DNA from: an uncultured Bacteroidales bacterium
Lineage (GTDB): Bacteria > Bacteroidota > Bacteroidia > Bacteroidales > Porphyromonadaceae
NCBI GenBank assembly: GCA_902489445.1
Contig: CABTZX010000001.1
Location: 38,606-102,605 of the forward strand
Reading direction: 5' to 3'
DNA: 64,000 bases
The notes beneath the pieces were generated by a model. It was given only the letters and a program-made list of their open reading frames with translations. It made no database searches and was not told the origin of the DNA. This document shows, piece by piece, positions 23,700 through 39,571 of the stretch. The position numbers and the translations under genes were made by a program. Position 1 is the stretch's first letter, and each line of letters starts with the position of its first letter.

Positions 23700-25853
23700 C
23701 TATGCGTCCTGTTCTTCTTCCGCTTCGTGTTCTTTCAGCAACTTATCCTGAACATCGGTCGGTACCAGCTCATAAGAAGCGAATTTCATCGTGAAGCTCG
23801 CTCTGCCTCCGGTTATGGAGCTGAGTGCGGTAGCATAGTTGCTCAATTCCTTCAGCGGAACTTTAGCCAACAACTGTTCGTAACCCTTTTTGCTGTTCAT
23901 CCCCATTATGATGGCGCGCCGTCCTTGGAGATCGCTCATCACATCACCGATGAATTCGGCCGGTACGTCAACTTCTACGTCATATACCGGTTCCAAAATT
24001 TTGGGAGCAGCTTCGCGGAACGCCGTACTAAAGGCATTTCGTCCGGCAAGCATAAAGGAAACTTCGTTGCTGTCTACCGGGTGCATTTTGCCGTCATATA
24101 CAATTACGCGTACATCACGGGCATAGCTTCCGGTAAGCGGGCCGCGCTCCATCTTTTCCATTATACCTTTTAGGATGGCGGGCATAAAGCGCGTATCAAT
24201 GGCACCGCCTACAACGCTATTTACGTATACTAACTTACCGCCCCATTCCAGAGGTATTTCCTGCGTATCGCGTGGCGTTATTTTGAATTCCTGCGAGCCG
24301 AAGCGGAACGATTCGGGTAGTGCTTTCCCCTCTTCGTAAGGCTCTATAATGAGGTGTACCTCACCGAATTGCCCTGCACCGCCCGATTGCTTCTTGTGCC
24401 GATAGTCCGCACGTGCCGGTTTGGTAATCGTTTCGCGATACGGAATGCGTGGTTCGCTGTATTCAACGGGTATCTTGTCGTTGTTTTCAATACGCCACTT
24501 CAGCGTACGAAGGTGAAATTCGCCCTGACCGCTTACGATGGTTTGCCGCAATTCCTTAGATTGTTCCACAATCCAGGTGGGATCTTCTTCGCACATACGG
24601 TGCAACACTTCGCTCATCTTTTCCGAATCGGACGCATTAACCGCCTTGATGGCGCGCCGATACTTAGAATTGGGGAATTCAACCTCCGGATAACGGTAGG
24701 AAACCTCCTTATCGTTTAGCGCATCGCCACGCCGAACATCCTTCAATTTTACGGTAGCTCCCAAGTCACCGGCTTCGAAGGATTCCACACGCTCACGGAT
24801 CTGCCCCGCGGTAACGTAGAGCTGTCCGATGCGTTCCTTGCTGTCCCGATTGCTGTTCGTTAGGTCCATCCCTTCCTTCAGTGTGCCTTGCATCACCTTA
24901 AAGAAAGATACTTCGCCGATATGCGGCTCTATGGTAGTTTTGAAAAAATAGAGACTTACCGGCTTGGAGGCATCCGGAGCAACCGCCTCACCTTCAGTAG
25001 TTACCGGCGATGTGGCTTCCGTTACACGCGGTGCCAATAGTGCCAATAAGCTCATTAAGCGGCGTACGCCCATATTCTTCATACCGCATGCGGTAAACAC
25101 CGGGTACATTCCTCCGGTGAGTACCCCTTTGCGCATGCCTTGGACAATCTCTTCTTCCGTGAGCGAACCGGCTTCAAAGAAGCGCTCCATAAGGTTTTCT
25201 TCGTGTTCGGCTGCCGATTCGATGAGAGCCTGACGTAACTCTTCTGCCTGAGCCAACTCAGATGCCGGAATATCCAATACTTCCGGCGTGCCACCTTCAG
25301 GACCCCATTGGTACATCTTCATGCTGAGCACGTCCACCATTTGGTTCTTGCTGCCGGCAACCGGGAACTGAATTTGAACTAATTTACCGCCAAAACGCTC
25401 CTTTAGTTGGGATAACGTAGCCTGAAAATCAGCTTTTTCGTCATCGGTCTGGTTAATCAGGAAAAAGATCGGTCGCTTCTTTTCTTCTACATATCTTAGT
25501 TGGTTAATCAGACCCACTTCTATCCCGTACCGCGCATTGACTACTGCTAAGCTGCTGTCCGTCACATTTAATGCCGAAACGGTACCGCCGATAAAGTCAT
25601 CGCTACCGGCGCAATCAATCAAATTCAGCTTCTCGTCCTCCCAAGCAACGCTAAAGAGGGTCGAAAAAACCGTATAGCCATATTCCTTTTCTACGGGGAA
25701 GTAGTCGCACACCGTATTGCCTTGACTCACTTCGCCACGACGTTTTATCACGCCGGCTTCGTAGAGCATCGTCTCAGCGAGAGTCGTTTTGCCCGAACCG
25801 GCACTGCCTAAAAGAGAAATGTTGCGGATGTCCGCTGTTTTGTACACTTTCAT
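23700..25853 (-). CDS. elongation factor G-family GTPase (EF-G paralog)
   Basis: 717 aa. The G1 motif SAGSGKTT and the five-domain EF-G architecture are present, but the N-terminus is divergent (MKVYKTADIRNISLLG), suggesting EF-G2 or a ribosome-associated paralog rather than canonical fusA. Confidence 0.8.
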   Translation of the reverse strand: MKVYKTADIRNISLLGSAGSGKTTLAETMLYEAGVIKRRGEVSQGNTVCDYFPVEKEYGYTVFSTLFSVAWEDEKLNLIDCAGSDDFIGGTVSALNVTDSSLAVVNARYGIEVGLINQLRYVEEKKRPIFFLINQTDDEKADFQATLSQLKERFGGKLVQIQFPVAGSKNQMVDVLSMKMYQWGPEGGTPEVLDIPASELAQAEELRQALIESAAEHEENLMERFFEAGSLTEEEIVQGMRKGVLTGGMYPVFTACGMKNMGVRRLMSLLALLAPRVTEATSPVTTEGEAVAPDASKPVSLYFFKTTIEPHIGEVSFFKVMQGTLKEGMDLTNSNRDSKERIGQLYVTAGQIRERVESFEAGDLGATVKLKDVRRGDALNDKEVSYRYPEVEFPNSKYRRAIKAVNASDSEKMSEVLHRMCEEDPTWIVEQSKELRQTIVSGQGEFHLRTLKWRIENNDKIPVEYSEPRIPYRETITKPARADYRHKKQSGGAGQFGEVHLIIEPYEEGKALPESFRFGSQEFKITPRDTQEIPLEWGGKLVYVNSVVGGAIDTRFMPAILKGIMEKMERGPLTGSYARDVRVIVYDGKMHPVDSNEVSFMLAGRNAFSTAFREAAPKILEPVYDVEVDVPAEFIGDVMSDLQGRRAIIMGMNSKKGYEQLLAKVPLKELSNYATALSSITGGRASFTMKFASYELVPTDVQDKLLKEHEAEEEQDA

Positions 25854-26509: not shown

Positions 26510-29500
26510 ATGTGGAGGTTCAATGAAAATATAAAAGAAATAAGAGCTAAGGCAGAAAGAGATTTTACTAATAGAGTTTTTTCCACTATAGCTCCATTCT
26601 ATAATACTAAAATAACTGCTGGGAACTTAAAAGAAATAAGAACTAAAGTAGAGGATGATTTTACTAGAAGAGCTAATCATGTAGCTGGGTTATTAGGAAT
26701 AAATCTAATTGGTATCACTACTAATATTGAAAACTTTGGTTTAGAAAAAGGTAAGACAGCTGCTGAAGCTATGGCTAATTTATCCTATACTTTTGAATTA
26801 GAAGGTCCTTCAGAAAAGACAGCATTATTTGCTTCATTAGTTAATGACTTAGGATATGAACCGCAAGAAACAGTTATAACTTCTAAAGTAGTTAACTCTG
26901 CTGAAGAAGCTGATGCTGTACAAATAACCTACCCATTAGGTAATAAGAGTAGAAAAGAAACATTAGAACTAATAAATAAACTAGGCATAGAAAATTATTC
27001 TATTGACCCTAGAACTAATGTAATAACTGTCACTGTATTTAATCAGAAGAATGGTAAACTTACATTGACAGCAGAAGAAGCAGAAAAACAAAGAACATTA
27101 AGTGAAGAATTATATGGTAAAGAAAGAAGTGGATGGAAGTGCTCCGCAAAATTCCTCAAATCAGATTATCTCAATACGAGAGTTCGTAGAGAAATTTATG
27201 CCAGAGAGCTTGAAAGAGATGGAAACAGAGGAAAGCAACAAGACATACGTCTTCATAAGAAACTCAAAGCAGGATTAAAAGAAACTACAACTAGTCTACA
27301 AGATACAAGTAGACAAAGAGGGAGTCAATTCTTTGGAGAACACGATGCTATATCTAGTAATATTGTAGTAGTAAATGAGAGTAATTCAGGTGAAGAAAAC
27401 TCAATAACAAGAAGAAATACTGAAAAGGAAATAAAAGAAAATGCTAGAATAAGTATTCCCTTAGGTAAAAGCATTGGTGATATTATCTCAGGGAGAAGAA
27501 CAGCTATAACTATAGAAAGAAATAATGCAACTAAGCGTGATTTTTACATCTTAAAAGATATAGAGGCTGGGCAAATATTCTCTATTAAAGATAACTCTGG
27601 AAAAACAGTTTTTGTTAGAGCCACAAAAAAACTACATAAAGTAAAGAGAGAAGGTGTTGGTGATGAATGGGCTGAAAGAAACTTTGGTGACACAAGAGAA
27701 AGAGAAATCTTTGCTACAAAAGATAATAGAGAGTTTTCTGAAGTAGAGTTCGAGTATGTAGGTGATAAAATAGATGCCTTATTAAATAAAGATAAAATAC
27801 TAGAAGAAATTAAAAGTATATTTGAGAGAGCTCTAGATAATGGTTCTCGGGATTTTAGATTAGATTTTGCTAGTGGAATAAGTGATCCTGATGTAATAAA
27901 TAGAGTTGTAGAATATATCAACAGTGTAGCTGATGATTTTGGATGTATTCCTTTTAATGTTATATTTCCGGAGAATTTAAATACAGGTAAGCTCAATATA
28001 ACAGCACAAGAAGAAACAGAAAGTGATACCACAACTAATAGTTCAGTATCTATAGAACAAAGAAGAAAACTTAATCAGACATTTGACCCTAAGAGGAGAA
28101 AAGCTAGAGCTAACCTTATAGCTAGATATTTTAGTAATTACTTGGATGCTAAAGTAGCAAAATTTGATAAGAGAGTACAAGAAGCTTTAACTAGTGATAC
28201 CGTATCTGAAGAAGATAAACAAGAATTAAGAGCTTTTCTAGCTACATTGGAAGCTACAGGAAGTAAGAGACTAGAAGTATTACGGAGAATAGGACCTAAA
28301 AAGATATTAGAAAAGATAAGAAATTCTTTAAATAAAACACTTAATGATACATTAAGTGGTAATAGAGAGAAAATTATAGAGGGAAAGAAAAAAAACGCTC
28401 TTAGGAAAAATCCAAATCTTACAGAAGAACAATTAGAAGCTGATGCTAATAATTTTATTAAAAACATAGTAGAAAAATATCCTGCTATAATAGAGAATTT
28501 TACAGCTCTAGCTGAGGAAGCTATTCCTATGATTAATAAAAGAGAGCAAATAACTATAAATGAAGATAGTGTTCTCTCTTATATTAACTCTCAGGAAAGT
28601 ATGTTTCAAGAAGAGTTTAATGAAGATGGTACTGAAGATATTGTAGACATGGAGGAACAACCTAAAGATCATTTTCTCTCTGACTTTAGAACTACTTCTT
28701 CACAAGAAACAATGTCTATGAGAGTTAGGAAGAGATTAGGTGAAATAATAAAAATAAATCCTGATGGTACTCCTGTATTAGATGATATGTATATGGGTGT
28801 ATATCTAAATGAAGATGAAGTATATTCTACACTTAAAAGAGATTTGTCTAGTATGGTCACTTCTGAGGATATGATTCCTTTATTAGAGGAATCAGCTAAA
28901 ACTAAACCTTGGGTAAAGCAAGTAATACAAACAGTAGAGAGAGATCTTTTATTTAAGACTCAATTATACCACAATATGAGAAGTGATTTCCAAGAATATT
29001 GGGTACAAGAAAAGTCTAAGGAATCTAAAGGATTTAATACATTACCTATTAATAGAAAATCAGGTATATGGCATATGCTTGAATCTTGGAAGAATAATGT
29101 AGAAGGTGATAATGTATTAACTACTACTAATACTAATGATAAATATGGTAGTATCTATGATAATAATGGTAATATTATTAAAGAGAATATAAAGAAAGCA
29201 AAAACATCATTTTTAAATATAAGACGAATATTAAGGGGTATAAAAGATATTAATGAGTTAGATAAAAATTTTTATAGAGATGTCACTAATTTATTAAAAT
29301 CTTTTGGAATAAATGTGGGGATTGATACAGTAGAACAAACAATAAAAGTAAATAAACCTGAAGAAGTATATGCTGGAATTAGTCCTCTGGTAATAATTAC
29401 AGATGTAGTAGAAAAAGATAATATAACTACTACTAATAATTTTTATAAAAAATTCAGCACAGCCTATTCTAATATAGCTAAATTCTTTGCTCCAGCTATG

Positions 29501-32500
29501 GGATCAGTGATGGAGGACTCTGCTAGACAGAATGGTAAAAACTATCAATCTTATGTAGCTCCTTCTTATCTAGGTAAACTGATGAAAAGTATTAAGGATA
29601 AAAATACTGAAGAGGGTACTAGGTTTCTAGATGAGAATTACAAAGCTTTTGGCTGGTTTTATAATAAAAAAGCTGATTTCTTTTTTAGTGATTGGATAGA
29701 TAAATTATATAAAAATGAAATCTTTAATCGTGAAAAAGGAATGAGATTTAGAGATCTTATAGCTCATAAGACAGTATTAAATCAAGATGATAAAAACTAT
29801 GTAGATTGGGGTAAAAAGGATGTCATTCTATCTCTATTAACTGAGTTTCAAAAAGCTGATGTAGATGGTACAGCTTGGTATTATGTACCTCTATTTAGTG
29901 ATGCTCCCTCTGCTGATTTTATTAGGTTTGTGAAGTATGGTGATGAAGTTGGTGATTTTAAAGAAGGAGATAAACCATATAAAGAGGCTATAAAAGAAAA
30001 ACTCCGTGGAGTTGCAATGCAGGAATTTGAAAGAATAGTTCTTGTAAAAGAAAGAGATGCTATTAGAAATAGTGAAACAGCTACTGCTGAAGAAAAAGAA
30101 AGAGTAGGAGCTATAGATAACTATGATATAAAGAGGGATAAGAATGGTAATATAGTAAAGAAAGGTGGAGCAGAGTTTAAGTTCTTTCCTCAATTTAATG
30201 AATGGGGAGTATTTGATGCCATTAGTGACTTCCTAGAAGATCCTAATAATTCTGGTGAATATCCTTCAAAACTTGTTGATAGGTTTGTTGAAAGATACTT
30301 GGAAGAAGGTCTTGATAATGCTCTTGAAGTATGGAAGAATGAACAAGTATTTGAATTAGATGAATATGGTGGATATAAAAACTTTGATATAAGCACAGAG
30401 TTAGATACTGATACTCTTACGGATATTTTAAATTCTTTAAGTACCGATTTATATGATGTAAGGTATGGTCCTTTTGTAGAATTGTCTACAGAAGATATAG
30501 ATATACTATCTAAAGTTTATGGTATTTATGATGATTTTAACAAATATGTAATTTTCAATAAAAACAAAATTGATGATAGAGTTGTAAACAAATACATAAA
30601 TGACTTTAGAACAGCCGTAAAAGAATTACCTAATTCAGAAGTATTTGATGCTATAAGAAAAGACTCTATTGAATTAAGTGAATTATCACCCTTAGTAAAA
30701 TTCCTCAGAAACTACTACTACAATAATGCCCTAGCTACTTCTCAAATTATTCAACTAACTAATACTGACTTAGCTTACTTTAAGGACATGACTGATTTCT
30801 ATAAGAGAAATAAACAGAACCATGCTCCTTCACTAAGGCTAGATACTAGTGCAGTAAATCCCTTTACAGGAGAAAAAGTAGGTAGAAAAGTAGAAAGAGC
30901 CATCACTATTAAAGATGAATATATTCCTTCTACTGGTGTAGAAGATATAAGAAAAATTCTTACAGAAAGAGGAGTAAGTAAGACAGAAATAGATTTTATC
31001 TGTAGTCAATTTAGAAACGTTAATGTAACTGATGCTCAATCTTATAGAAGTCTAGACTCTTATAGGGCTGTTAAGTGTATGGTGGGTGATTGGACACAAC
31101 AAATGGAGACTGCCTATAATAATATACTTAATGATAGATGGACTGCTACTGATATGATGACAGTGTTTAATACATTAAAGCCTTATGTATACACACAGAA
31201 CTCTGTAGATAGTGGTGTAGCTGGTGGAGGTAAAATAAAAGTTCCTATACAACATAAGAACTCAGAGTTTCTTCTTCTGGCTACTTATAATCTAGTATCT
31301 GGTGCTCTAGGAAGAGCAAAGAAACTGAAGATATTGGATCAATTTATGAGAGACAATCAAATTGATGTAGTTCACTTTGAGTCTGTAGTAAAAGTAGGTA
31401 AGCAAGGTGCTATAGATGTAAATCAATTTGATGAAAATAATCTTGATGGTTTTAGAGAGTACCTAGAAAAAGCTATACGCACTGAAGATGGAAATTATAA
31501 TCCACAAGTAGTTCATGAAATAAGCTATGAGGATTATGGTATTCAGATGGAAACAGGACAGCATATAGTAGACACTAATAATCTTGTAGGTACTCAGGTA
31601 CAAAGATTAATAGGGGGAGACATAAGTGAGTCTGCTGTATTAGAACTAGATCAAGTAGATGATTTATTACTCTCTGATATGGGTGATGATGAAGTAATAC
31701 CCACATTAGGAGTTACTGCTGGTTCTTTGAGAGCTCAATCAGGTATAAGTGTAGAACAGTTTAGAGAGATAAAAGAACTTAGAGATTATGCAAGACATGC
31801 TAAGAACCTTTATGAAGACTATGCTGACTTGCAATATAAAAAGGGAGAAAAGATAGATCAGAATAAACTAGATCAACTTAAATCTGAGTACGAAACTGCA
31901 AAAGAAAAGTATGAAGCTAAAAGAAAGAGTACAAAGTCTGGATTAAGTAAAAAGCAATGGCATACTTTATTTAATGCTCTAATGGTAGAGAATATCATAC
32001 AGGGTTATAATAAAGTAGATAAACTATTCTCTGATAAAAAATCTATAAGTGATGTACTCAAGAGACAGATTAATTCTAGTCCTAGATATAGCAGGGATTT
32101 GCTTGATGCTTGTAGTCTCGATGAGAATGGAGAGTTCTTAATTCCTCTTGTTGATCCTACTAATAGTGATAGAGTACAAGCCCTTATGGCTAGTATAATG
32201 AGAAAGGAGATCACTCAACAAAAGATTAAAGGTGGTGCTCTATTCCAAGCTTCTTCTTTTGGTCTTACTGATGAACTAAATATTATTTATGAGGGTGAAG
32301 GTGAGAATAAAAGAATTAAAGAGTTTGAGTGCTATATGCCTGCTTATTCTAGAGAATTCTTTGAACCATTTATGAATTCTAAAACTCATGAACTTGATAT
32401 TAGTCAGCTACCAGATGAACTAAAAGAAATAGTTGGGTATAGAATACCTACAGAAGATAAATATTCTATGATGCCTTTAAAGATTAAAGGCTTCTTACCC

Positions 32501-35206
32501 TCTTCTATGGGTACTGCTATTATGCTTCCTGCTGAAATTACTACTATCACAGGTTCAGGATTTGGCATTGATGAATTACAATTAATGCTTCCTGAGTTTG
32601 ATATTATTGAATATAACAAAGGAAAGGCAAGAGCTGCATATAAAGAGCAATATAAACTCAGCGCAAGAGATAAGTCACTAGCAACTAACTCAGATATACC
32701 TAGTTTTGAAGATTGGTTTGAGGAGAATAAAGAAGATTTCAAATACAATAAACCTAAGTTCTCTAAAGTAAAATATGATTTCTCTAAGTCTCCCAAAGAG
32801 AATGGTACTAGAGCTAGAAATAATCTTTACTTAGATTTAGTACGTAGTGTACTTACTAATTCTGATACTGCTGATAAGATATTTAAAGGAGTTACTCCTA
32901 CAGAACATCATAGAGTAGGTAGAATTAATACTATACTTTTAAATGCTACTAGAAAAGAAATAGCTGAAGCTTTAGGATGTAGAGAATCAGAAGCTGTAAA
33001 GAAGTTATTACAAGTAGATGAGAGTACAGCTACTAACTTAGCAAAGAAATTAAGTCCTAAGATGGATCCACTATCACCTATATCTCAATTAGTTTCTCAC
33101 CAAGCTAATATGGTAGGACAAAAGATGATTGGGGTATATGCAATTAATCATGTGCAGAATGCCATTCTTCAATATGCTGAAGATACTGCCTTCACTCATC
33201 CTTTACTTCTAAATGGTAGATCAAGGAACAAACTAACTGAAATGTTAGATAGTAGTGGTGGTGCTAGAAACTTTATTACCAGGAACATAGCAGGGTATCT
33301 TTCTATGGCAGTGGATAATAGTAAGGAACAAATGCTTGCTACTCATAATCAGAATAACTTCACTTGTGGTGTCACTATGGCTCTCATAAGAGTGGGTTAT
33401 CAACCTAAGGAAGTAGCTCTATTACTGCAACAGCCTATCGTAAGAAGAATGACTGATGCATACTCTAGCAATGAATATGGAGAATATGCATCAGGAAAAG
33501 ATGTAATAAGTAATGTAATAGAAGATCTACAGAAAAAGATTTTAAGCATAGATCCCAGCTTTTCTTTTACAGGTATGACAGGTGAGTCTTTATCTGCATG
33601 GAATACAGCTGGTGCGTACTCAATGGAAAGGCTTGCGAATAATATAGTTCAGGATACAGAAAGAAGAAAAGCACATATAAAAGGAGAAGATCTAAATTCT
33701 TTAGTAGATCAATATAAAGTAGCTTTACTTTTCAGGAACTTATATTCTAAAGGAGAAGAACTTTCAAACTTTGTAAATAGAACTAGACCTGATCAAATAA
33801 AAAATGCAGCAGGACCTACTATAGCTCAAACACAAGAAAATGAAGCTAAGTATGTAGATGCTTATAGAAAATCTCAACCTGTAAAGAGAGGTGATGTGAT
33901 AGTTACTCCTCCTGTAGCTATTACTGGAGCTAATATATTTAGCATAACAGATAATATAGAAAGTATTACTGAGGATGAGCTAAGAAAAATGTCTATGGAA
34001 TCTTCTATACCCTATCTACAAGCTCAGTTCTTGTGTGGTATACAAGGTGCTAAAAAGTTCTATGGTAAGTTCTTTCCATACTATAATGAGAATATCATTG
34101 CAGCAAAGGATAAAGTACTTAGTCTAGCTAAATCTAATCATATTAGTGCTAAAGAAGTAAATGATATTTATCAAGAACTTAGTACTTATGTATTATCAGG
34201 TGCAGAGTTCTTGGCAGGAGATACAGCTTTAATGGGTGATAAAAGATTCTTGAATGGTTATGAAGAAGTAAAGGATTACTACATAAATGAATTTCCTGAT
34301 GACTTTCAAGCTCTCTTAAAAGAGGCAGAAAAGGATGAAAATTCAGACCTGAAGAGCAACTTTTTTATAGATAATCTTACTGTAGCTTTTAATAGAAAAG
34401 TCAACTCAAAAGTCATTGAATTAAATACAGAAGGTAAGATGACTAGAGAAACAAGGGAATCTATACAAAGAGATTGGGAAGATCTACTTTATTCAAGTAA
34501 TCCTAAGTATGTAAAACTAGCTCAAGCTCTATTTACCTATAGTTACTTTAGAAGTGGATTAGCTTATACACCTAAGGGGTTTGGTCACTTAGCACCTTCC
34601 TCTATAAAAACTAGTGTTCCTGGTTTTGTGGATGCAATTAAATTATTAGATGATAAGAATTTAAACTTTGATGAGTTTGCCGAACAGTTTATCATTAATC
34701 ATAGAAATAATAACAAATTAGTTGCTAATGCCTATAGCTTAGATAAAAGAGAGTTCATCAACACTGTTAATGGTAAAAATGAAATAAAGACTGAGCTTTT
34801 GTTTGACACTTCCGGAGAAAATAGTGGGAAGAGATACAAGTCTATCATAAAAGAGAGATATTATTCAGGGGGAAAGGTACGGTATCTATATTCTCCGTTT
34901 ATAAAGAAGACTATAAATAGTAGAGATTTTGTTTATACACTTACAGAGTATACTGATAATACAGTGAAATATAGATTAGTACAGAATCTTGGTATGCCAT
35001 CTGTGTTTAAAGAATATAGCTTTGGGAAAAACTACGATAAAATAGACAGTAGTCTTATAGCTAATATTAATAATACTGACCTCTCTTGGAATAGACGTAC
35101 TATGAGAACCATAGATGTTTTACGTAAAAGTAGTGGAATGAAGGTATATGGCTATTATGTAAAAGAAGATGTGGCTGCAGTAGTAGAGAATAGTCAAAAA
35201 GAATAA
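26510..35206 (+). CDS. giant hypothetical protein (2898 aa), cytoplasmic-type, horizontally acquired
   Basis: 8.7-kb ORF with no stop codon in an AT-rich context, which is essentially impossible by chance. No signal peptide or TM segment. Lys/Glu/Asn-rich, with a coiled-coil stretch around residue 1750. No Walker A, DPPY/NPPY, DxDGD, DEAD/H or polymerase motifs found by eye. Confidence 0.85.
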   Translation: MWRFNENIKEIRAKAERDFTNRVFSTIAPFYNTKITAGNLKEIRTKVEDDFTRRANHVAGLLGINLIGITTNIENFGLEKGKTAAEAMANLSYTFELEGPSEKTALFASLVNDLGYEPQETVITSKVVNSAEEADAVQITYPLGNKSRKETLELINKLGIENYSIDPRTNVITVTVFNQKNGKLTLTAEEAEKQRTLSEELYGKERSGWKCSAKFLKSDYLNTRVRREIYARELERDGNRGKQQDIRLHKKLKAGLKETTTSLQDTSRQRGSQFFGEHDAISSNIVVVNESNSGEENSITRRNTEKEIKENARISIPLGKSIGDIISGRRTAITIERNNATKRDFYILKDIEAGQIFSIKDNSGKTVFVRATKKLHKVKREGVGDEWAERNFGDTREREIFATKDNREFSEVEFEYVGDKIDALLNKDKILEEIKSIFERALDNGSRDFRLDFASGISDPDVINRVVEYINSVADDFGCIPFNVIFPENLNTGKLNITAQEETESDTTTNSSVSIEQRRKLNQTFDPKRRKARANLIARYFSNYLDAKVAKFDKRVQEALTSDTVSEEDKQELRAFLATLEATGSKRLEVLRRIGPKKILEKIRNSLNKTLNDTLSGNREKIIEGKKKNALRKNPNLTEEQLEADANNFIKNIVEKYPAIIENFTALAEEAIPMINKREQITINEDSVLSYINSQESMFQEEFNEDGTEDIVDMEEQPKDHFLSDFRTTSSQETMSMRVRKRLGEIIKINPDGTPVLDDMYMGVYLNEDEVYSTLKRDLSSMVTSEDMIPLLEESAKTKPWVKQVIQTVERDLLFKTQLYHNMRSDFQEYWVQEKSKESKGFNTLPINRKSGIWHMLESWKNNVEGDNVLTTTNTNDKYGSIYDNNGNIIKENIKKAKTSFLNIRRILRGIKDINELDKNFYRDVTNLLKSFGINVGIDTVEQTIKVNKPEEVYAGISPLVIITDVVEKDNITTTNNFYKKFSTAYSNIAKFFAPAMGSVMEDSARQNGKNYQSYVAPSYLGKLMKSIKDKNTEEGTRFLDENYKAFGWFYNKKADFFFSDWIDKLYKNEIFNREKGMRFRDLIAHKTVLNQDDKNYVDWGKKDVILSLLTEFQKADVDGTAWYYVPLFSDAPSADFIRFVKYGDEVGDFKEGDKPYKEAIKEKLRGVAMQEFERIVLVKERDAIRNSETATAEEKERVGAIDNYDIKRDKNGNIVKKGGAEFKFFPQFNEWGVFDAISDFLEDPNNSGEYPSKLVDRFVERYLEEGLDNALEVWKNEQVFELDEYGGYKNFDISTELDTDTLTDILNSLSTDLYDVRYGPFVELSTEDIDILSKVYGIYDDFNKYVIFNKNKIDDRVVNKYINDFRTAVKELPNSEVFDAIRKDSIELSELSPLVKFLRNYYYNNALATSQIIQLTNTDLAYFKDMTDFYKRNKQNHAPSLRLDTSAVNPFTGEKVGRKVERAITIKDEYIPSTGVEDIRKILTERGVSKTEIDFICSQFRNVNVTDAQSYRSLDSYRAVKCMVGDWTQQMETAYNNILNDRWTATDMMTVFNTLKPYVYTQNSVDSGVAGGGKIKVPIQHKNSEFLLLATYNLVSGALGRAKKLKILDQFMRDNQIDVVHFESVVKVGKQGAIDVNQFDENNLDGFREYLEKAIRTEDGNYNPQVVHEISYEDYGIQMETGQHIVDTNNLVGTQVQRLIGGDISESAVLELDQVDDLLLSDMGDDEVIPTLGVTAGSLRAQSGISVEQFREIKELRDYARHAKNLYEDYADLQYKKGEKIDQNKLDQLKSEYETAKEKYEAKRKSTKSGLSKKQWHTLFNALMVENIIQGYNKVDKLFSDKKSISDVLKRQINSSPRYSRDLLDACSLDENGEFLIPLVDPTNSDRVQALMASIMRKEITQQKIKGGALFQASSFGLTDELNIIYEGEGENKRIKEFECYMPAYSREFFEPFMNSKTHELDISQLPDELKEIVGYRIPTEDKYSMMPLKIKGFLPSSMGTAIMLPAEITTITGSGFGIDELQLMLPEFDIIEYNKGKARAAYKEQYKLSARDKSLATNSDIPSFEDWFEENKEDFKYNKPKFSKVKYDFSKSPKENGTRARNNLYLDLVRSVLTNSDTADKIFKGVTPTEHHRVGRINTILLNATRKEIAEALGCRESEAVKKLLQVDESTATNLAKKLSPKMDPLSPISQLVSHQANMVGQKMIGVYAINHVQNAILQYAEDTAFTHPLLLNGRSRNKLTEMLDSSGGARNFITRNIAGYLSMAVDNSKEQMLATHNQNNFTCGVTMALIRVGYQPKEVALLLQQPIVRRMTDAYSSNEYGEYASGKDVISNVIEDLQKKILSIDPSFSFTGMTGESLSAWNTAGAYSMERLANNIVQDTERRKAHIKGEDLNSLVDQYKVALLFRNLYSKGEELSNFVNRTRPDQIKNAAGPTIAQTQENEAKYVDAYRKSQPVKRGDVIVTPPVAITGANIFSITDNIESITEDELRKMSMESSIPYLQAQFLCGIQGAKKFYGKFFPYYNENIIAAKDKVLSLAKSNHISAKEVNDIYQELSTYVLSGAEFLAGDTALMGDKRFLNGYEEVKDYYINEFPDDFQALLKEAEKDENSDLKSNFFIDNLTVAFNRKVNSKVIELNTEGKMTRETRESIQRDWEDLLYSSNPKYVKLAQALFTYSYFRSGLAYTPKGFGHLAPSSIKTSVPGFVDAIKLLDDKNLNFDEFAEQFIINHRNNNKLVANAYSLDKREFINTVNGKNEIKTELLFDTSGENSGKRYKSIIKERYYSGGKVRYLYSPFIKKTINSRDFVYTLTEYTDNTVKYRLVQNLGMPSVFKEYSFGKNYDKIDSSLIANINNTDLSWNRRTMRTIDVLRKSSGMKVYGYYVKEDVAAVVENSQKE

Positions 35207-35793
35207 GCAGAGTACATCAGATGATATTAATACCTCTAAAGCAAGGAGACCCCAATTGTCCAAAATAACACCAACTGGTGTATATAATAGGATAGGCGGT
35301 TCAAAGAGTAATTCTACCCTTAGTGATAAAGATTAGAAAAACTCTGGATGGACTATGAAGGAACTTAATAGCTTTGATGAAGCAAAACTAAGATGTCTGC
35401 TGAAGAAGATATAGATGTAGCCTTTATGGTAAAATCGAAAGAAAAGATAGAAAATGCTGAAGGTAACTTGGCTTGTGATTAATTGATAAATAAGAATGTG
35501 GGATTAAGTTGTGCAATAATATCCAGAGTAAAAAAACAGACTTAGAAGATCAGACGTATAAAGTAACCTATGGGCTTCCAATTTATTCAAAGAATATAGA
35601 TTGGGAGTTAGTTACAAAAACTATTCAGTTCCTCCAATTTAGTGGAGAAATATAAATGTGAGTATAACGAGGTGTAAGCATATTTCTGACTTTCGGGGAA
35701 TCTTTTCCTCTCATCTTAACAATAAAGTATCTAATGGGAGCGAAATAAGTATTATATTTGTGGACAGATATACGTAAATCCATTGGTGGCAAT

Positions 35794-36240
35794 ATGAAAA
35801 AAGTCTATAGATCTGTGCGTAGCCTTCTCTCTACAGGCGCCTCCTTGCTTTTAGGATGGTTTGGTTTTTCCGGTTGTCTCATTATAGGTGGTGCTGAGTA
35901 CGGTACTCCTACGGTTAATTATGAGTTCAAGGTGCACGTAAAGGATCAGAACGCAAAACCGGTTCCCGGTCTACAGGTATCTGTTTCTGAAACATATTAT
36001 CAGGAAAAGCCACTCACCGATGCAGATGGAAATGTGCAGTTGAACGGTAGATATACCGGATTTTACGGAGATCAAAAGGTTGGCTTGGGTATACGCGACG
36101 TTGATGGCGAACAGAATGGTGTGGTAGCGGATACGCTGATCAACGTGGATGTGAAGGAAAGTGACTTTGTAAGCAAAGGAAGAGGCTGGAATAAAGGCAA
36201 GATCGTAAAGGATATAACTCTTGAAGTTAAACGGAAATAG
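35794..36240 (+). CDS. putative lipoprotein with a carboxypeptidase-regulatory-like beta-sandwich, paired with the radical SAM gene
   Basis: Signal peptide plus lipobox (GWFGFSGC). The Met at 35794 is the likely start. GC content is host-like. Confidence 0.55.
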   Translation: MKKVYRSVRSLLSTGASLLLGWFGFSGCLIIGGAEYGTPTVNYEFKVHVKDQNAKPVPGLQVSVSETYYQEKPLTDADGNVQLNGRYTGFYGDQKVGLGIRDVDGEQNGVVADTLINVDVKESDFVSKGRGWNKGKIVKDITLEVKRK

Positions 36241-36265
36241 CTATAGACAAATTGGTTCAAATATC

Positions 36266-36526
36266 ATGAAGCGTAGTAGCATTTCTTTTCTCGGAAATAT
36301 AGTGGTGGCGGTAGCGCTCGTGCTCATCGGGTGCTTGGGATTTATGAGCTGCAAGTCACGCACATTTCGTTCGGAGAAAAGAGATGAACAAAATGTCCCA
36401 TCCGATTCGACAACTTTCAGAAAACCACGACCGATACACGGAGGCGTGGTAGTAGCGATGTACGGAACTCCCTATACTCGTTTTGAAGCAAAGAAGGTTC
36501 CTCGTCCAGAAGAAGCTGAAGAATAA
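36266..36526 (+). CDS. small putative lipoprotein (86 aa)
   Basis: Signal peptide plus lipobox (VLIGCLGFMSC) and a charged C-terminal tail. Lies between the first lipoprotein and the radical SAM gene. Confidence 0.4.
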   Translation: MKRSSISFLGNIVVAVALVLIGCLGFMSCKSRTFRSEKRDEQNVPSDSTTFRKPRPIHGGVVVAMYGTPYTRFEAKKVPRPEEAEE

Positions 36527-36556
36527 GCGGATACTGAGATTTTCCGGCAAACTGAT

Positions 36557-37693
36557 ATGATGCATCGCAAGCATTCCTCTATGGGTAAAAAGCTACTTCG
36601 TCCGTCGCTCAAACAGCGATTGGCACTGAACTTGTACCGCGTGGTTCGCGATGAAAATATACATCAGCATCCGATGAATACGCTCTTTTGGGAGTGTACC
36701 CTGCGGTGTAATCTGCATTGCGCGCACTGTGGAAGTGATTGTCGCGCTGATAGCGGCGTAGCGGAGCTTTCTGTTCCCGAATTCATTCGCATCATCGATC
36801 GGTTAACTCCCCATGTCAATCCCAATCAACTTTTGGTGATTTTCACCGGTGGAGAGGCGTTGGTGCGGCAAGATATCGAGGAAGCCGGACTGGCACTCTA
36901 CCATCGCGGTTATCCGTGGGGCATTGTGACCAATGGGATGCTTTTGAGTGCTGAGCGTTTGGAAAAGCTACGAAGTGCCGGGCTCCATACCGCAACTGTG
37001 AGCTTGGACGGCTTTGCCGAAGCGCATAATAGGCTACGAGGTCATCCGCTAAGCTATGAGCGCGCTTGGAATGCCATACAACTGCTCACGAAAGCGGAAG
37101 ACATTGTGTGGGACGTGGTTACCTGCGTTAATCCGATGAATTTCGATTCACTTCCCGCACTGCGCCAACATCTAGTTAATGCCGGAGTGAAGTGCTGGAG
37201 GCTCTTTTCTATTTTTCCCGTAGGGCGAGCCGCTGAAAATGAGCAACTCCGTCTTTCGGACAGCCAACTCTACCAATTAATGCAATTCATTGTAGCCACT
37301 AACCGGGAGGGGCAAATTGAGGCGCAGTATGGGTGCGAGGGCTATTTGGGAGCCTTTGAGGGAAAGAGTCGCAAGCAGTTTTACCAATGTCGTGCCGGTG
37401 TGAATATAGCCTCCATTCTTTGTGATGGTTCCATCAGTGCCTGCCCAAGCATACGCTTCAATTATAAGCAGGGCAATGTGCATCATGATGACCTTTGGAC
37501 CGTGTGGCAAAACGGATTTACCGCTTTTCGCGACCGATCATGGGCTAAGAGCGGTCCCTGCGCATCCTGCAAAAGCTGGAAGTTTTGTTTGGGAAATGGC
37601 ATGCATCTTCGGGATGACGACGGAAAGTTATTGGTATGCCATCTCAGTCGACTCGAAGCCGGAGCTGAAGCCCTGCACGCCTCCAAGGAGTAA
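36557..37693 (+). CDS. radical SAM enzyme with a C-terminal SPASM (additional 4Fe-4S) domain
   Basis: CNLHCAHC (CxxxCxxC) radical-SAM cluster motif near the N-terminus and a Cys-rich C-terminus (CPSIRF...CASCKSWKFCLGNG...C). This is the architecture of anSME and peptide-maturase-type SPASM enzymes. Confidence 0.85.
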   Translation: MMHRKHSSMGKKLLRPSLKQRLALNLYRVVRDENIHQHPMNTLFWECTLRCNLHCAHCGSDCRADSGVAELSVPEFIRIIDRLTPHVNPNQLLVIFTGGEALVRQDIEEAGLALYHRGYPWGIVTNGMLLSAERLEKLRSAGLHTATVSLDGFAEAHNRLRGHPLSYERAWNAIQLLTKAEDIVWDVVTCVNPMNFDSLPALRQHLVNAGVKCWRLFSIFPVGRAAENEQLRLSDSQLYQLMQFIVATNREGQIEAQYGCEGYLGAFEGKSRKQFYQCRAGVNIASILCDGSISACPSIRFNYKQGNVHHDDLWTVWQNGFTAFRDRSWAKSGPCASCKSWKFCLGNGMHLRDDDGKLLVCHLSRLEAGAEALHASKE

Positions 37694-38292
37694 TACGCGT
37701 TGTTTCTCTCTATCAACCACATTGATTAGCCATTTCAATTCTTTCGCTCCTCCTACTTATTATATAGGTGGAAGCGTGATCTTTTACCGAGAAAAGAACG
37801 CTCTTTATGCGAAGAAATAGCAGAGAACTTCGCTACCCCCGTATGCACGCTGTTACGCCATGGTACATTCCTCAAATAAGGCGGATTATAGCGCGCAGTT
37901 TAGTGCAGAATATACTGGTATGAGACGCAGTTATATGACCAAATGCTACACGTAATAAAAAAAGACAGGCCAATCGATCGCTCAATCAGCCTGCCGAGGG
38001 CTTTACATCAACGGCGGGTGAACCAATACCATCTTCTGCCCTCACCGGCAAAGATAGCTAACTCCTATCACTTTTGTCCATCGCCATAGTGGCAGACTAA
38101 CTACCAATCGCTTTGAGAGCTTAGGCAACGGATACAATACAGCTAACATTTCGCCATATATCGTGGCTAAGGTTGCGCTTAATCATACCAGGTTCTGCTG
38201 CGGCAGGACACGTCTTGGCCAACTGCGATGCGGGTCGCCTTGGCTCGTCCGAGGCTTCCTGTCTCTATTCTTGCTCGTAGTTTTACCCTCCT

Positions 38293-38690
38293 CAATCCAT
38301 ACGCTCTCGCTCATCAATCCATAGATGCTCACTTCTTAATCCGTACGCTCTTGCTCCTTTATACATACGTCCTCAATCCTTTCTACGTACTTCCTCGATT
38401 CTTTATACGTAGCTTCATAATCTTTTGTACGTACCTTCTCTATAAATCATTAAAAGGATTTATATAAACCGTTTAAATGATTTATACGCGTACTTTAAAG
38501 GATTTGTACAAATCATTTAAAGAATTTATCGAGTGTCACCGGATAAAAAATCGACAACCTACGCATCACCGGTCATCAGCCTACGTATAATGAATCGTCA
38601 AACTACGCATCACTGGTCAAGATCTACATATTAATGGTCATCAATCACGAATAAGCAGGCGGCGAAAACGTACAAATACGCATAGAGATA
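38293..38690. repeat. MITE-like repeat element copy A, containing a 22-23-bp minisatellite (core TACGTAC / ATCC(A/G)TAC) and a palindromic AAAGGATTTATATAAAC core
   Basis: About seven tandem units of 22-23 bp (38293-38455) are followed by aaatcattaaaaggatttatataaaccgtttaaatgattta. A 160-bp stretch is homologous to 44105-44265, and the ACGTACAAATAC end motif is shared. Confidence 0.7.
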
Positions 38691-38827
38691 TTCATAATGG
38701 GGTGTCGGGGGGACTACATGGGGGACGTTATCGCTCGCTAAAACGTTCGACTACTTCCGTACCGTACAAACAAAAGCCGACGGATTACTTTATCCGCCGG
38801 CTTGAATTGGTCTGGGTGGTGGGGTAG

Positions 38828-39244
38828 CTACTTGCGGAGATTATCCCGAATCTCGCGGAGCAACTTCACCTCTTCGGATGGTTCGGGTGCAGGTTCCTGA
38901 GCGGCTTCTTTCTTACGTCTAAAACTATTGATCCCCTTAATCAGTAGAAAGATAACCAATGCGATGATAAAGAAATCCAGTAAGGCTTGGATGAAACTTC
39001 CTATCGTTAATGCTACTTCAGGACGGATAATTTCGTCACCCTCCATAATACCGGGACGGAGAATCCATTTTAGATCGGCAAAATTGCCTTTGTCCGTAAG
39101 TAACGTAATTGGGGGCATAATCACATCCTTCACCAAGGAATCAACTATTTTGCCGAACGCACCGCCGATGATGATCCCGACAGCCATATCCATCACACTT
39201 CCTTTGAGTGCGAACTCTTTGAACTCTTGAATAAACTTAGCCAT
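38828..39244 (-). CDS. mscL: large-conductance mechanosensitive channel
   Basis: 138 aa. MAKFIQEFKEFALKGSVMDMAVGIIIGGAFGKIV is the canonical MscL N-terminus/TM1. Confidence 0.9.
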   Translation of the reverse strand: MAKFIQEFKEFALKGSVMDMAVGIIIGGAFGKIVDSLVKDVIMPPITLLTDKGNFADLKWILRPGIMEGDEIIRPEVALTIGSFIQALLDFFIIALVIFLLIKGINSFRRKKEAAQEPAPEPSEEVKLLREIRDNLRK

Positions 39245-39571
39245 ACGATCTTGTTTTGCTAACTAACTGATGTTTCTTCTTACGTGGCAAAAGTACGCTC
39301 TTTTTGGGAAGATAACAAGGAAAATAATCGGCAAAACGCTGTTTTAGCCACTTTTTCACGCGTTAAGGGGTCTAAAGTTGCGTTAGAAAAAAAATAATGA
39401 TTACTTTTGGTGCAGGTACCGAAAAGTAGTGGTTGTAGGTTGCGCTTTGGCTCAGGTGAAGCACGGCTAAAACAAAGAAATTGGGCAACCGAAAAAGAAG
39501 GAAAGAATGAAAAAGAGAGGTACACAAAATTATACAGACGAGAGTTTAACTACACAATAAGAAGAATCGTT

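Follow-up and report, generated by a model that had tools for sequence, protein, structure and literature searches.

A radical SAM/SPASM enzyme encoded with Y-G-x-P-tagged lipoproteins in an uncultured Bacteroidales bacterium: a candidate two-component protein-modification system

TIGRFAMs catalogs a pairing of a radical S-adenosylmethionine (SAM) enzyme, TIGR04133, with a putative lipoprotein, TIGR04134. Both families are classed as “hypothetical equivalogs,” and the label used by IMG is “radical SAM enzyme (rSAM/lipoprotein system).” Our literature search found no functional study of either family (the sole accession match was a typographical error for the type-B C-terminal domain of the type IX secretion system), and neither a paper on the mining of RiPPs (peptides made by the ribosome and modified after translation) in Bacteroidales nor the SPASM surveys mention the system. 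Here we analyze a cassette of this kind, in which two small lipoprotein genes precede a gene for a radical SAM/SPASM enzyme, in a 64,000-nucleotide stretch of DNA from an uncultured Bacteroidales bacterium (contig CABTZX010000001.1, positions 38,606 to 102,605), which is referred to as the window and whose own numbering is used throughout.

The described chemistry most relevant to the cassette is that of the spliceases, radical SAM/SPASM enzymes that excise tyramine at X-Y-G and so generate α-keto-β-amino acids, as reported for PlpX, PcpX, and RhaX/RcsX/RasX (PMC11414181, PMC11626197, PMC9811515). The X-Y-G splice motif has been defined (PMC11414181, PMC9811515), the natural splice sites are MYG and LYG (PMC11414181, PMC11626197, PMC9811515), and the splice tag of PlpA2 reads GPIRP-LYGLP-I (PMC10533398). 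The non-cyanobacterial spliceases are binary systems, and their ketoamide products inhibit serine and cysteine proteases (PMC11414181, PMC11626197, PMC9811515); in binary spliceases without a Y protein, a leader helix activates the enzyme (PMC11414181). According to the account given in PMC10849128, Scott et al. (2022; Chem 8:2659) searched the surroundings of all SPASM enzymes for YG-rich neighbors, with 27 pairs confirmed, and the TIGR04133 family may already be listed in that study. A literature search for splicease together with lipoprotein found no paper.

The cassette and its two gene families

The three open reading frames (ORFs) of the cassette encode proteins of 148, 86, and 378 amino acids and, just as the initial annotation of this DNA had described them, all lie on the plus strand with short gaps between them (25 and 30 nt). 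The features on which the argument depends are given below, with the supporting evidence in parentheses (HMM, profile hidden Markov model; AF2, AlphaFold2 model).

35794..36240, plus strand: lipoprotein 1, 148 aa, TIGR04134 “radical SAM-associated putative lipoprotein” (HMM)
35896..35910, plus strand: E-Y-G-T-P tag of lipoprotein 1, predicted modification site, with the Y36 codon at 35899-35901 (motif statistics)
36266..36526, plus strand: lipoprotein 2, 86 aa, minimal partner (HMM tag match, homologous short forms)
36458..36472, plus strand: M-Y-G-T-P tag of lipoprotein 2, predicted modification site, with the Y66 codon at 36461-36463
36557..37693, plus strand: TIGR04133-family radical SAM/SPASM enzyme, 378 aa (NCBIfam, Pfam, AF2)
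36707..36730, plus strand: C51-x3-C55-x2-C58 radical-SAM cluster motif, CNLHCAHC (invariant columns in the family alignment)
37334..37639, plus strand: SPASM region with C260, C278, C296, C335, C338, C344, and C361 (invariant alignment columns)

The enzyme matches the curated TIGR04133 model (rSAM_w_lipo) over its whole length (556.3 bits against a cutoff of 425, E 2.3e-167, model positions 1-350 of 350), and for lipoprotein 1 the TIGR04134 model (lipo_with_rSAM, cutoff 39.8) gives 115.5 bits over its positions 2-150 of 150. The rSAM/lipoprotein pairing in TIGRFAMs to which the initial annotation had pointed is therefore TIGR04133 with TIGR04134, both above their curated cutoffs. Pfam assigns Radical_SAM PF04055 and SPASM PF13186 (residues 278-339) to the enzyme, whose closest named relatives are those of Porphyromonas uenonis (81%) and P. 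levii (75%). The CxxxCxxC cluster and Cys-rich SPASM C terminus noted at the outset correspond to C51, C55, and C58, which stand within W45-E-C47-T-L-R-C-N-L-H-C-A-H-C-G-S-D-C62, and to seven conserved C-terminal Cys residues, the predicted ligands of two auxiliary [4Fe-4S] clusters. Four extra Cys residues (C47, C62, C190, and C260) are invariant in TIGR04133, with C47 and C62 flanking the CxxxCxxC motif; these extra residues are not conserved across splicease-type and outgroup enzymes, and TIGR04133 enzymes are without the fourth Cys of the SPASM Cx2Cx5Cx3C pattern (the residue listed is G348). The AF2 model of the enzyme (pLDDT 86) comprises a partial TIM barrel and a SPASM domain and has a single helix (residues 18-37) before the first strand of the barrel; since one helix only precedes the barrel, the enzyme has no RiPP recognition element (RRE) domain. 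The closest solved folds are those of the RiPP maturases SkfB, PqqE, and SuiB.

Lipoprotein 1 consists, in order, of a signal peptide, the lipobox FSGC (Cys28), a 7-residue linker, the tag E35-Y36-G37-T38-P39, and a β-sandwich (the lipobox calls made here are at the pattern level, from the family consensus across 89 sequences). Its AF2 model, which has a moderate pLDDT of 71 because a word-indexed homolog search yielded only relatives of ≥59% identity and thus a shallow alignment, is disordered over residues 1-35 and forms an all-β sandwich from residue 40, in agreement with the “beta-sandwich-like” fold first suggested for it. With residues 1-35 disordered and the first strand at residue 40, the E35-P39 tag would lie on a flexible tether. 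Pfam returned weak Big_1/CarboxypepD_reg matches for this protein, and Foldseek related its domain to transthyretin-like sandwiches.

Lipoprotein 2 has the lipobox FMSC (Cys29), a charged 35-residue linker leading through ...VVVA into the tag M65-Y66-G67-T68-P69-Y-T-R-F73, and an acidic tail, with no folded domain. A different lipobox, LIGC (C23), had been assigned to this ORF in the initial annotation; the family-conserved lipobox Cys is instead C29, and a close homolog (L004) has Ser in place of the first Cys (IGSLGFAGC). Lipoprotein 2 scores 17.5 bits against TIGR04134, below the 39.8 cutoff and over residues 60-76 (the tag) only, and was recruited by iterated search at E 7e-08; it appears to be a tag-only relative and not a TIGR04134 member under the curated rule. 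Homologous short forms, all of them with MYGxP, were found at L001-L004, L006-L010, L058, and L074, and across the Porphyromonas clade the long form has such short forms beside it.

Between strains, the rSAM gene shows 13 to 19 nucleotide differences, all of them synonymous. The ratio of nonsynonymous to synonymous polymorphism (pN/pS) is ~0.3 for lipoprotein 1 and ~0.6-0.8 for lipoprotein 2, in which M65-F73 is spared and most changes are in the linker and tail. The cassette is under purifying selection, and given the curated-HMM scores (556 and 115.5 bits) and the all-synonymous rSAM differences its ORFs are not chance features.

Relatives were collected by scanning one genome per species. 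At least 596 stretches encode a relative, gut and oral genera among them (Porphyromonas, Bacteroides, Parabacteroides, Tannerella, and Alistipes), and we analyzed the best 80 loci, clustering their flanking ORFs into families to count which neighbors are conserved. Nearly all of these 80 loci are from Bacteroidales. The gene-neighborhood comparison bears out the pairing, in that one to seven partner genes lie directly upstream of the enzyme gene on the same strand at 77 of the 80 loci, and overlaps of 3-10 nt with the rSAM start are common. Only the enzyme and partner families are conserved; any other family occurs in at most 14 of the 80 loci, and no conserved protease, transporter, or RRE gene was found among the neighbor families of these loci. 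In the closest Porphyromonas genomes, the flanks are unrelated to those in the window and the cassette alone is shared. Because only two gene families are conserved, the system is binary, with two components; because no transporter is conserved, export of the partners presumably relies on their own signal peptides and the Sec/lipoprotein pathway. The canonical features of leader-dependent RiPP systems (an RRE or PqqD-like domain, a leader protease, and a dedicated exporter) were not found. The cassette is an ordinary member of a cataloged, functionally uncharacterized system, and the best explanation of it is a self-contained two-component protein-modification system made up of a TIGR04133 enzyme and TIGR04134-type substrates.

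The Y-G-x-P tag and the candidate chemistry

Across 89 sequences, the partners share the signal consensus LLxLLGF-[SAT]-[SGA]-C, with an unusually fixed h-region and lipobox, followed after a short linker by the tag [E/M]-Y-G-x-P-x-x-x-[Y/F]-x-x-K. YGxP is present in 109 of 129 partner ORFs; at position −1 of the tag, 70 instances have E and 40 have M, at position +7 Y was counted 71 times and F 51 times, and K stands at position +10 in 88. The density of the tag is 6.4 per 1,000 amino acids in partners versus 0.087 in flanking ORFs (~70-fold). Beyond the family set, the extended motif occurred only in two further cassette ORFs and at one chance site in leucyl-tRNA synthetase, and a motif search of the rest of the window found no further tagged lipoproteins. 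In long partners the tag is followed by a transthyretin/CarboxypepD_reg-like β-sandwich, short partners (48-106 aa) have nothing beyond a signal, charged linker, and tag, and two or three copies of the tag occur in some partners. Because the domain-less short partners keep the tag and some partners have it in several copies, it appears to behave like a RiPP core and unlike the signature of a folded domain.

The pair was also found outside Bacteroidota, on the pTS1 replicon of Treponema saccharophilum (partner at L087, 2622-3011). There, the tag directly follows the lipobox Cys (LTSC-YGMPENYYSIKG), so that the residue before Tyr would be the lipidated Cys itself; a gene for an Mpi-family DNA invertase lies just upstream.

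We regard it as probable that the partners are substrates of the enzyme and that they are modified at the tag. That the small secreted partners are the substrates had been proposed in the initial annotation, and it gains support from the adjacency at 77 of 80 loci, from the fact that no other gene is conserved, and from Y-G-x-P being the sole feature common to the partners. An improbable alternative is that the enzyme acts on a small molecule or cofactor, like the heme enzymes AhbD and NirJ, and that the lipoprotein binds, carries, or needs the product or is simply coregulated. The HMM scores of the window enzyme with AhbD (118.9 bits) and NirJ2 (119.5 bits) are indeed similar to its score with the splicease family, it is without an RRE, and the β-sandwich domain resembles binding modules. 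However, what the partners have in common is not a domain but a short tag in a disordered segment, the 48- to 106-aa partners are domain-less and the tags can repeat, and no biosynthetic or transport genes co-occur at the 80 loci. Furthermore, the gene overlap suggests stoichiometric cotranslation, and the nearest solved folds are peptide maturases.

Anaerobic sulfatase-maturating enzymes (anSMEs) are RRE-less SPASM enzymes whose target, modified in the cytoplasm, is a short motif of unfolded proteins that carry a signal peptide and are yet to be exported, and because of this precedent a SPASM enzyme could act on Sec substrates before they are exported. The window enzyme, too, is an RRE-less SPASM protein that would act on proteins with Sec signals, but it is very improbable that it is itself an anSME-like maturase making formylglycine in a sulfatase-like or other exported protein. 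No anSME family occurs among its 25 best NCBIfam matches (the lowest score among these 25 being 51.4 bits), a solved anSME gave 36 bits, no C/S-x-P/A-x-R sulfatase motif is visible in the partners, and no sulfatase family recurs at the 80 loci. We rejected the anSME identity on the first two of these results. The initial annotation had named an anSME match with a sulfatase gene nearby as evidence that would speak against its reading; the anSME match did not appear (the window was not scanned for sulfatase genes).

As to the chemistry, we give close to an even chance to a reaction in which tyramine is spliced out of the lipoprotein precursors in the cytoplasm, ahead of their export by Sec. The precursors would be translated in the cytoplasm, where the SAM-dependent iron-sulfur enzyme would bind the unfolded N-terminal signal LLxLLGF-x-x-C and the tag [E/M]-Y-G-x-P-x-x-x-[Y/F] prior to export. 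Radical chemistry would then take place at Tyr-Gly, most likely as a splicease reaction in which the tyramine unit of the Tyr (C8H9NO) is cut out and a new bond links the former Tyr carbonyl to that of the residue before it. After Sec export of the modified precursor, the lipobox Cys would receive its lipid and signal peptidase II would make its cut. The mature protein would then display an electrophilic ketoamide on its flexible tether, separated from the lipid anchor by a few residues in the long form and by ~37 in the short form, and this group could serve as a membrane-tethered inhibitor of serine or cysteine proteases or as a reactive handle. The whole of this sequence of events, in which envelope lipoproteins of Bacteroidales (and of at least one Treponema) would be backbone spliced before export and would carry an α-keto-β-amino acid near the lipid anchor in their mature form, is a tentative proposal whose chances we put somewhat short of even.

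Annotated plasmid records were used as stand-ins for splicease sequences in comparing the enzymes, and the PlpX family, IPR026482, is presumably TIGR04103, as a plp-like Nostoc locus also suggests. A Nostoc plp-type cluster encodes a Nif11 precursor, a TIGR04103 enzyme (853 bits), and a 71-aa ORF overlapping the enzyme stop, and its core, SIA-LYGLPPELF, fits Y-G-x-P-x-x-x-F. When the plasmid records were searched by tblastn with the window enzyme, the best matches outside its own family were TIGR04103, TIGR03913, and a DUF1843-type enzyme (122-126 bits, ~30% identity), while TIGR04053 reached at most 97 bits and MftC at most 84 bits. The DUF1843 partners also carry X-Y-G/A (RMLYGG, KPYGVA, and PMYAAS), as does the unannotated Agathobacter ORF described below. 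In a small neighbor-joining tree, a TIGR04133-like clade grouped with a splicease-like clade (bootstraps of 100/100), and NirJ/AhbD-like enzymes, TIGR04053, and MftC fell apart from that group. Moreover, three of four sub-threshold TIGR04133-like enzymes that were examined (280-390 bits) have Y-G/A neighbors, with the motifs GPP-MYAPP, LSGC-PGPVM-KYGPGP, and LSAL-AYGCP.

Several observations weigh against splicing. At the level of the enzyme, the window protein scores 128.7 bits with TIGR04103, where membership would take 725, and splicease-type enzymes score ~150 bits with TIGR04133, no better than AhbD, NirJ2, and TIGR04053. The tree samples few families by a simple method, the fourth sub-threshold enzyme has no Y-G neighbor, and the TIGR04133 Cys pattern, with its four extra residues and its missing fourth Cys, differs from that of splicease-type enzymes. 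At the level of the substrate, the long partners mostly have Glu at X of X-Y-G, and a DYG site is not spliced by RcsX (PMC11626197). In some short partners the Gly is replaced by Asp or Ala (e.g., MYDCPP and MYACPS), the lipobox Cys that precedes Tyr in the Treponema partner would yield an awkward β-amino acid, and the conserved +7 aromatic residue and +10 Lys would also suit a cross-link. Because the HMM cross-scores did not favor spliceases over AhbD, NirJ, and TIGR04053, we consider the enzyme phylogeny soft, and in view of the HMM scores and the simple tree the case for splicing rests mainly on the substrate motif.

The same substrates could instead be modified at the same site by other radical chemistry, namely, a cross-link, a Y-G-X cyclophane, epimerization, or hydroxylation, which we consider doubtful. 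The candidate cross-links would run from Tyr at position 0 to the +7 aromatic residue or the +10 Lys or would form a three-residue cyclophane as in triceptides. Such products would account for the strong conservation of +7 Y/F and +10 K, domain-less short partners included, and would be in keeping with the many aromatic cross-links made by rSAM/SPASM enzymes, SuiB (Lys-Trp) and PqqE (Glu-Tyr) being among the nearest folds; the ~30% identity to spliceases, HMM scores not clearly closer to them than to other SPASM families, and the possibility that Glu at X makes a poor splice site point the same way. Formally, Y-G-X also fits the triceptide (XyeB/GrrM/FxsB) motif, but its third residue is variable and can be Gly or Pro, which is ill suited to a Cβ cyclophane, and the XyeB/GrrM/FxsB families are absent from the 25 best NCBIfam matches. 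Nor do those matches include any three-residue cyclophane-forming (3-CyFE), streptide-type, or epimerase family. On the other hand, Y, G, and P are the sole invariant residues of the tag, which is the pattern of a splicease core (LYGLP), and the sampled relatives with Y-G partners all lie in or adjoin the splicease clade.

Two side observations concern related enzymes. In Agathobacter rectalis (NZ_CP143948.1; L089, 2216-2422), an unannotated ORF ending in ...LFGPV-MYG-TGVRM lies directly upstream of a gene for an unclassified rSAM/SPASM enzyme, which scores an intermediate 235 bits with TIGR04103; the ORF resembles a splicease-type precursor that has gone unannotated in this human gut Firmicute. 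Among the sub-threshold TIGR04133-like proteins, some are fusions. P0168, P0196, and P0216 are 736-854 aa long, with a second, N-terminal rSAM/SPASM domain that was shown in P0168 and P0196 and assigned in P0216 by length and match position only. P0198 and P0208-P0211 (535-560 aa) have a C-terminal extension, in P0198 with TrmK and Methyltransf_18 matches; the ORF upstream of P0198 ends in ...LSAL-AYGCP-SAEE.

If tyramine splicing does occur here, the reach of splicease chemistry would no longer end at secreted RiPP peptides but would take in Sec-exported structural proteins, whose signal peptide would double as the leader. Gut and oral bacteria would then possess a membrane-tethered electrophile, as a protease inhibitor or covalent hook, abundant human commensals and pathogens would have noncanonical β-amino-acid ketoamides in their cell envelope, and compact RRE-free enzyme/tag pairs would become available for protein engineering. 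The analysis contributes three things, in that it defines the Y-G-x-P tag, identifies the 86-aa ORF as a candidate tag-only substrate, and puts forward a specific and testable splicease hypothesis; the tag definition turns an opaque annotation into the hypothesis of a 135.06-Da loss at a defined peptide.

Genomic setting of the cassette

Two further features describe the immediate surroundings of the three genes. They are as follows.

35733..38203, plus strand: conserved 2.47-kb module comprising the promoter region, the two lipoprotein genes, the rSAM gene, and ~0.5 kb downstream (blastn)
35753..35760, plus strand: TATATTTG, match to the Bacteroidetes −7 promoter consensus TAnnTTTG, 33 nt 5′ of the first ATG (weak, pattern only)

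An identical rSAM protein is encoded in two contexts on metagenome contigs, downstream of a giant ORF (L094 and L098), as in the window, and between rimP-nusA-infB and queG (L093 and L095-L097). In blastn comparisons, L093 and L095-L097 matched the window at 96.4-96.9% nucleotide identity, with the match confined to 35733-38202/38205, and only window positions 35733-38203 are common to both contexts. This arrangement suggests rearrangement or transfer, and the 2.47-kb cassette appears to behave as a portable module. A search for terminal repeats around it gave weak inverted matches only, none of them convincing.

Directly upstream of the cassette is a 9-kb island of low GC content (0.28-0.35, against 0.48-0.49 in the cassette). 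It contains the giant ORF (26510-35206, plus strand, 2,898 aa), which aligns at 34% identity, over 77-81% of its length, with the “putative RNA polymerase” (virion RNA polymerase) of crAss-like phages (cr112_1, cr128_1, PhiCrAssBcn, and Kehishuvirus); no Pfam or PHROG match was found for it. The ORF stands alone between host genes, with an EF-G-like gene (23700-25853, minus strand) on one side and the rSAM cassette on the other, and has the look of a solitary gene of phage origin within a bacterial chromosome. The initial annotation had asked whether the cassette and this ORF are functionally linked. In the window, as in two metagenome contigs, they are neighbors (588-nt gap), but it is highly improbable that the cassette functions together with the giant ORF or arrived through it; this ORF is a homolog of a phage virion RNA polymerase, differs sharply from the cassette in GC content, and is absent from all 80 related loci. 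Since near-identical cassettes that encode the identical rSAM protein do without it, being located between rimP-nusA-infB and queG, and since the two contexts share 35733-38203 only, we consider the adjacency incidental and answer the question in the negative.

Within the module, the 61 nt preceding the first ATG differ at only 0 to 2 positions between strains. Scans for σ70 promoters and terminators gave results at chance level that are uninformative for Bacteroidota, and Rfam found no match over 35000-39500. Downstream of the rSAM gene, a 1.1-kb stretch (37694-38827), which contains no ORF of ≥100 aa and no Rfam match, carries two repeat arrays, each of four repeats with a 22-nt period. The first (38288-38375) consists of CTCCTCAATCCATACGCTCTCG-like repeats and the second (38428-38529) of TTTAAAGGATTTAT-type half-palindromes with overlapping inverted repeats; both look like iterons or operators.

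Comparison with described systems

With respect to the TIGR04133/TIGR04134 system as cataloged, the cassette has the same gene order, strand, adjacency, and Bacteroidales host, and nothing essential differs; what the window adds is a second, minimal partner of 86 aa beneath the TIGR04134 cutoff. The anSMEs provide a logistical precedent only, in that the C/S-x-P-x-R motif and the formylglycine chemistry are theirs and not those of the cassette.

The TIGR03913 “rad_SAM_trio” GDL-motif/DUF1843 systems share with the cassette the placement of tandem small partner genes directly upstream of a gene for an rSAM/SPASM enzyme. Their partners have an N-terminal X-Y-G/A/M site, and their enzymes are about as similar to the window enzyme as TIGR04103 is. 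They differ in that the DUF1843 partners are cytoplasmic and helical, without signal peptides, and in that the DUF1843-type enzyme is longer (470-520 aa) and has a C-terminal extension. The TIGR03913-type enzyme is much closer to TIGR04103 (cross-scores of 414-435 bits) than to TIGR04133 (~150 bits).

The differences from the spliceases lie in the substrates, which in the window are Sec/lipoprotein precursors with a signal peptide in place of a Nif11/NHLP leader, in the absence of a conserved protease or transporter, and in the auxiliary-cluster Cys residues of the enzyme, of which C260 is present and the fourth Cys of Cx2Cx5Cx3C is absent. In common with the spliceases, the cassette combines an rSAM/SPASM enzyme with co-encoded X-Y-G substrates (EYG in lipoprotein 1 and MYG in lipoprotein 2), has Met at X in the short forms, as at splicease MYG sites, and presents Tyr-Gly in the Y-G-x-P(-x3-F) context found in PlpA2 (LYGLPI) and in the Nostoc precursor (LYGLPPELF). 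A binary architecture without a Y protein is known for the non-cyanobacterial types, and the RRE-less enzyme of the cassette matches both the binary spliceases and the anSMEs.

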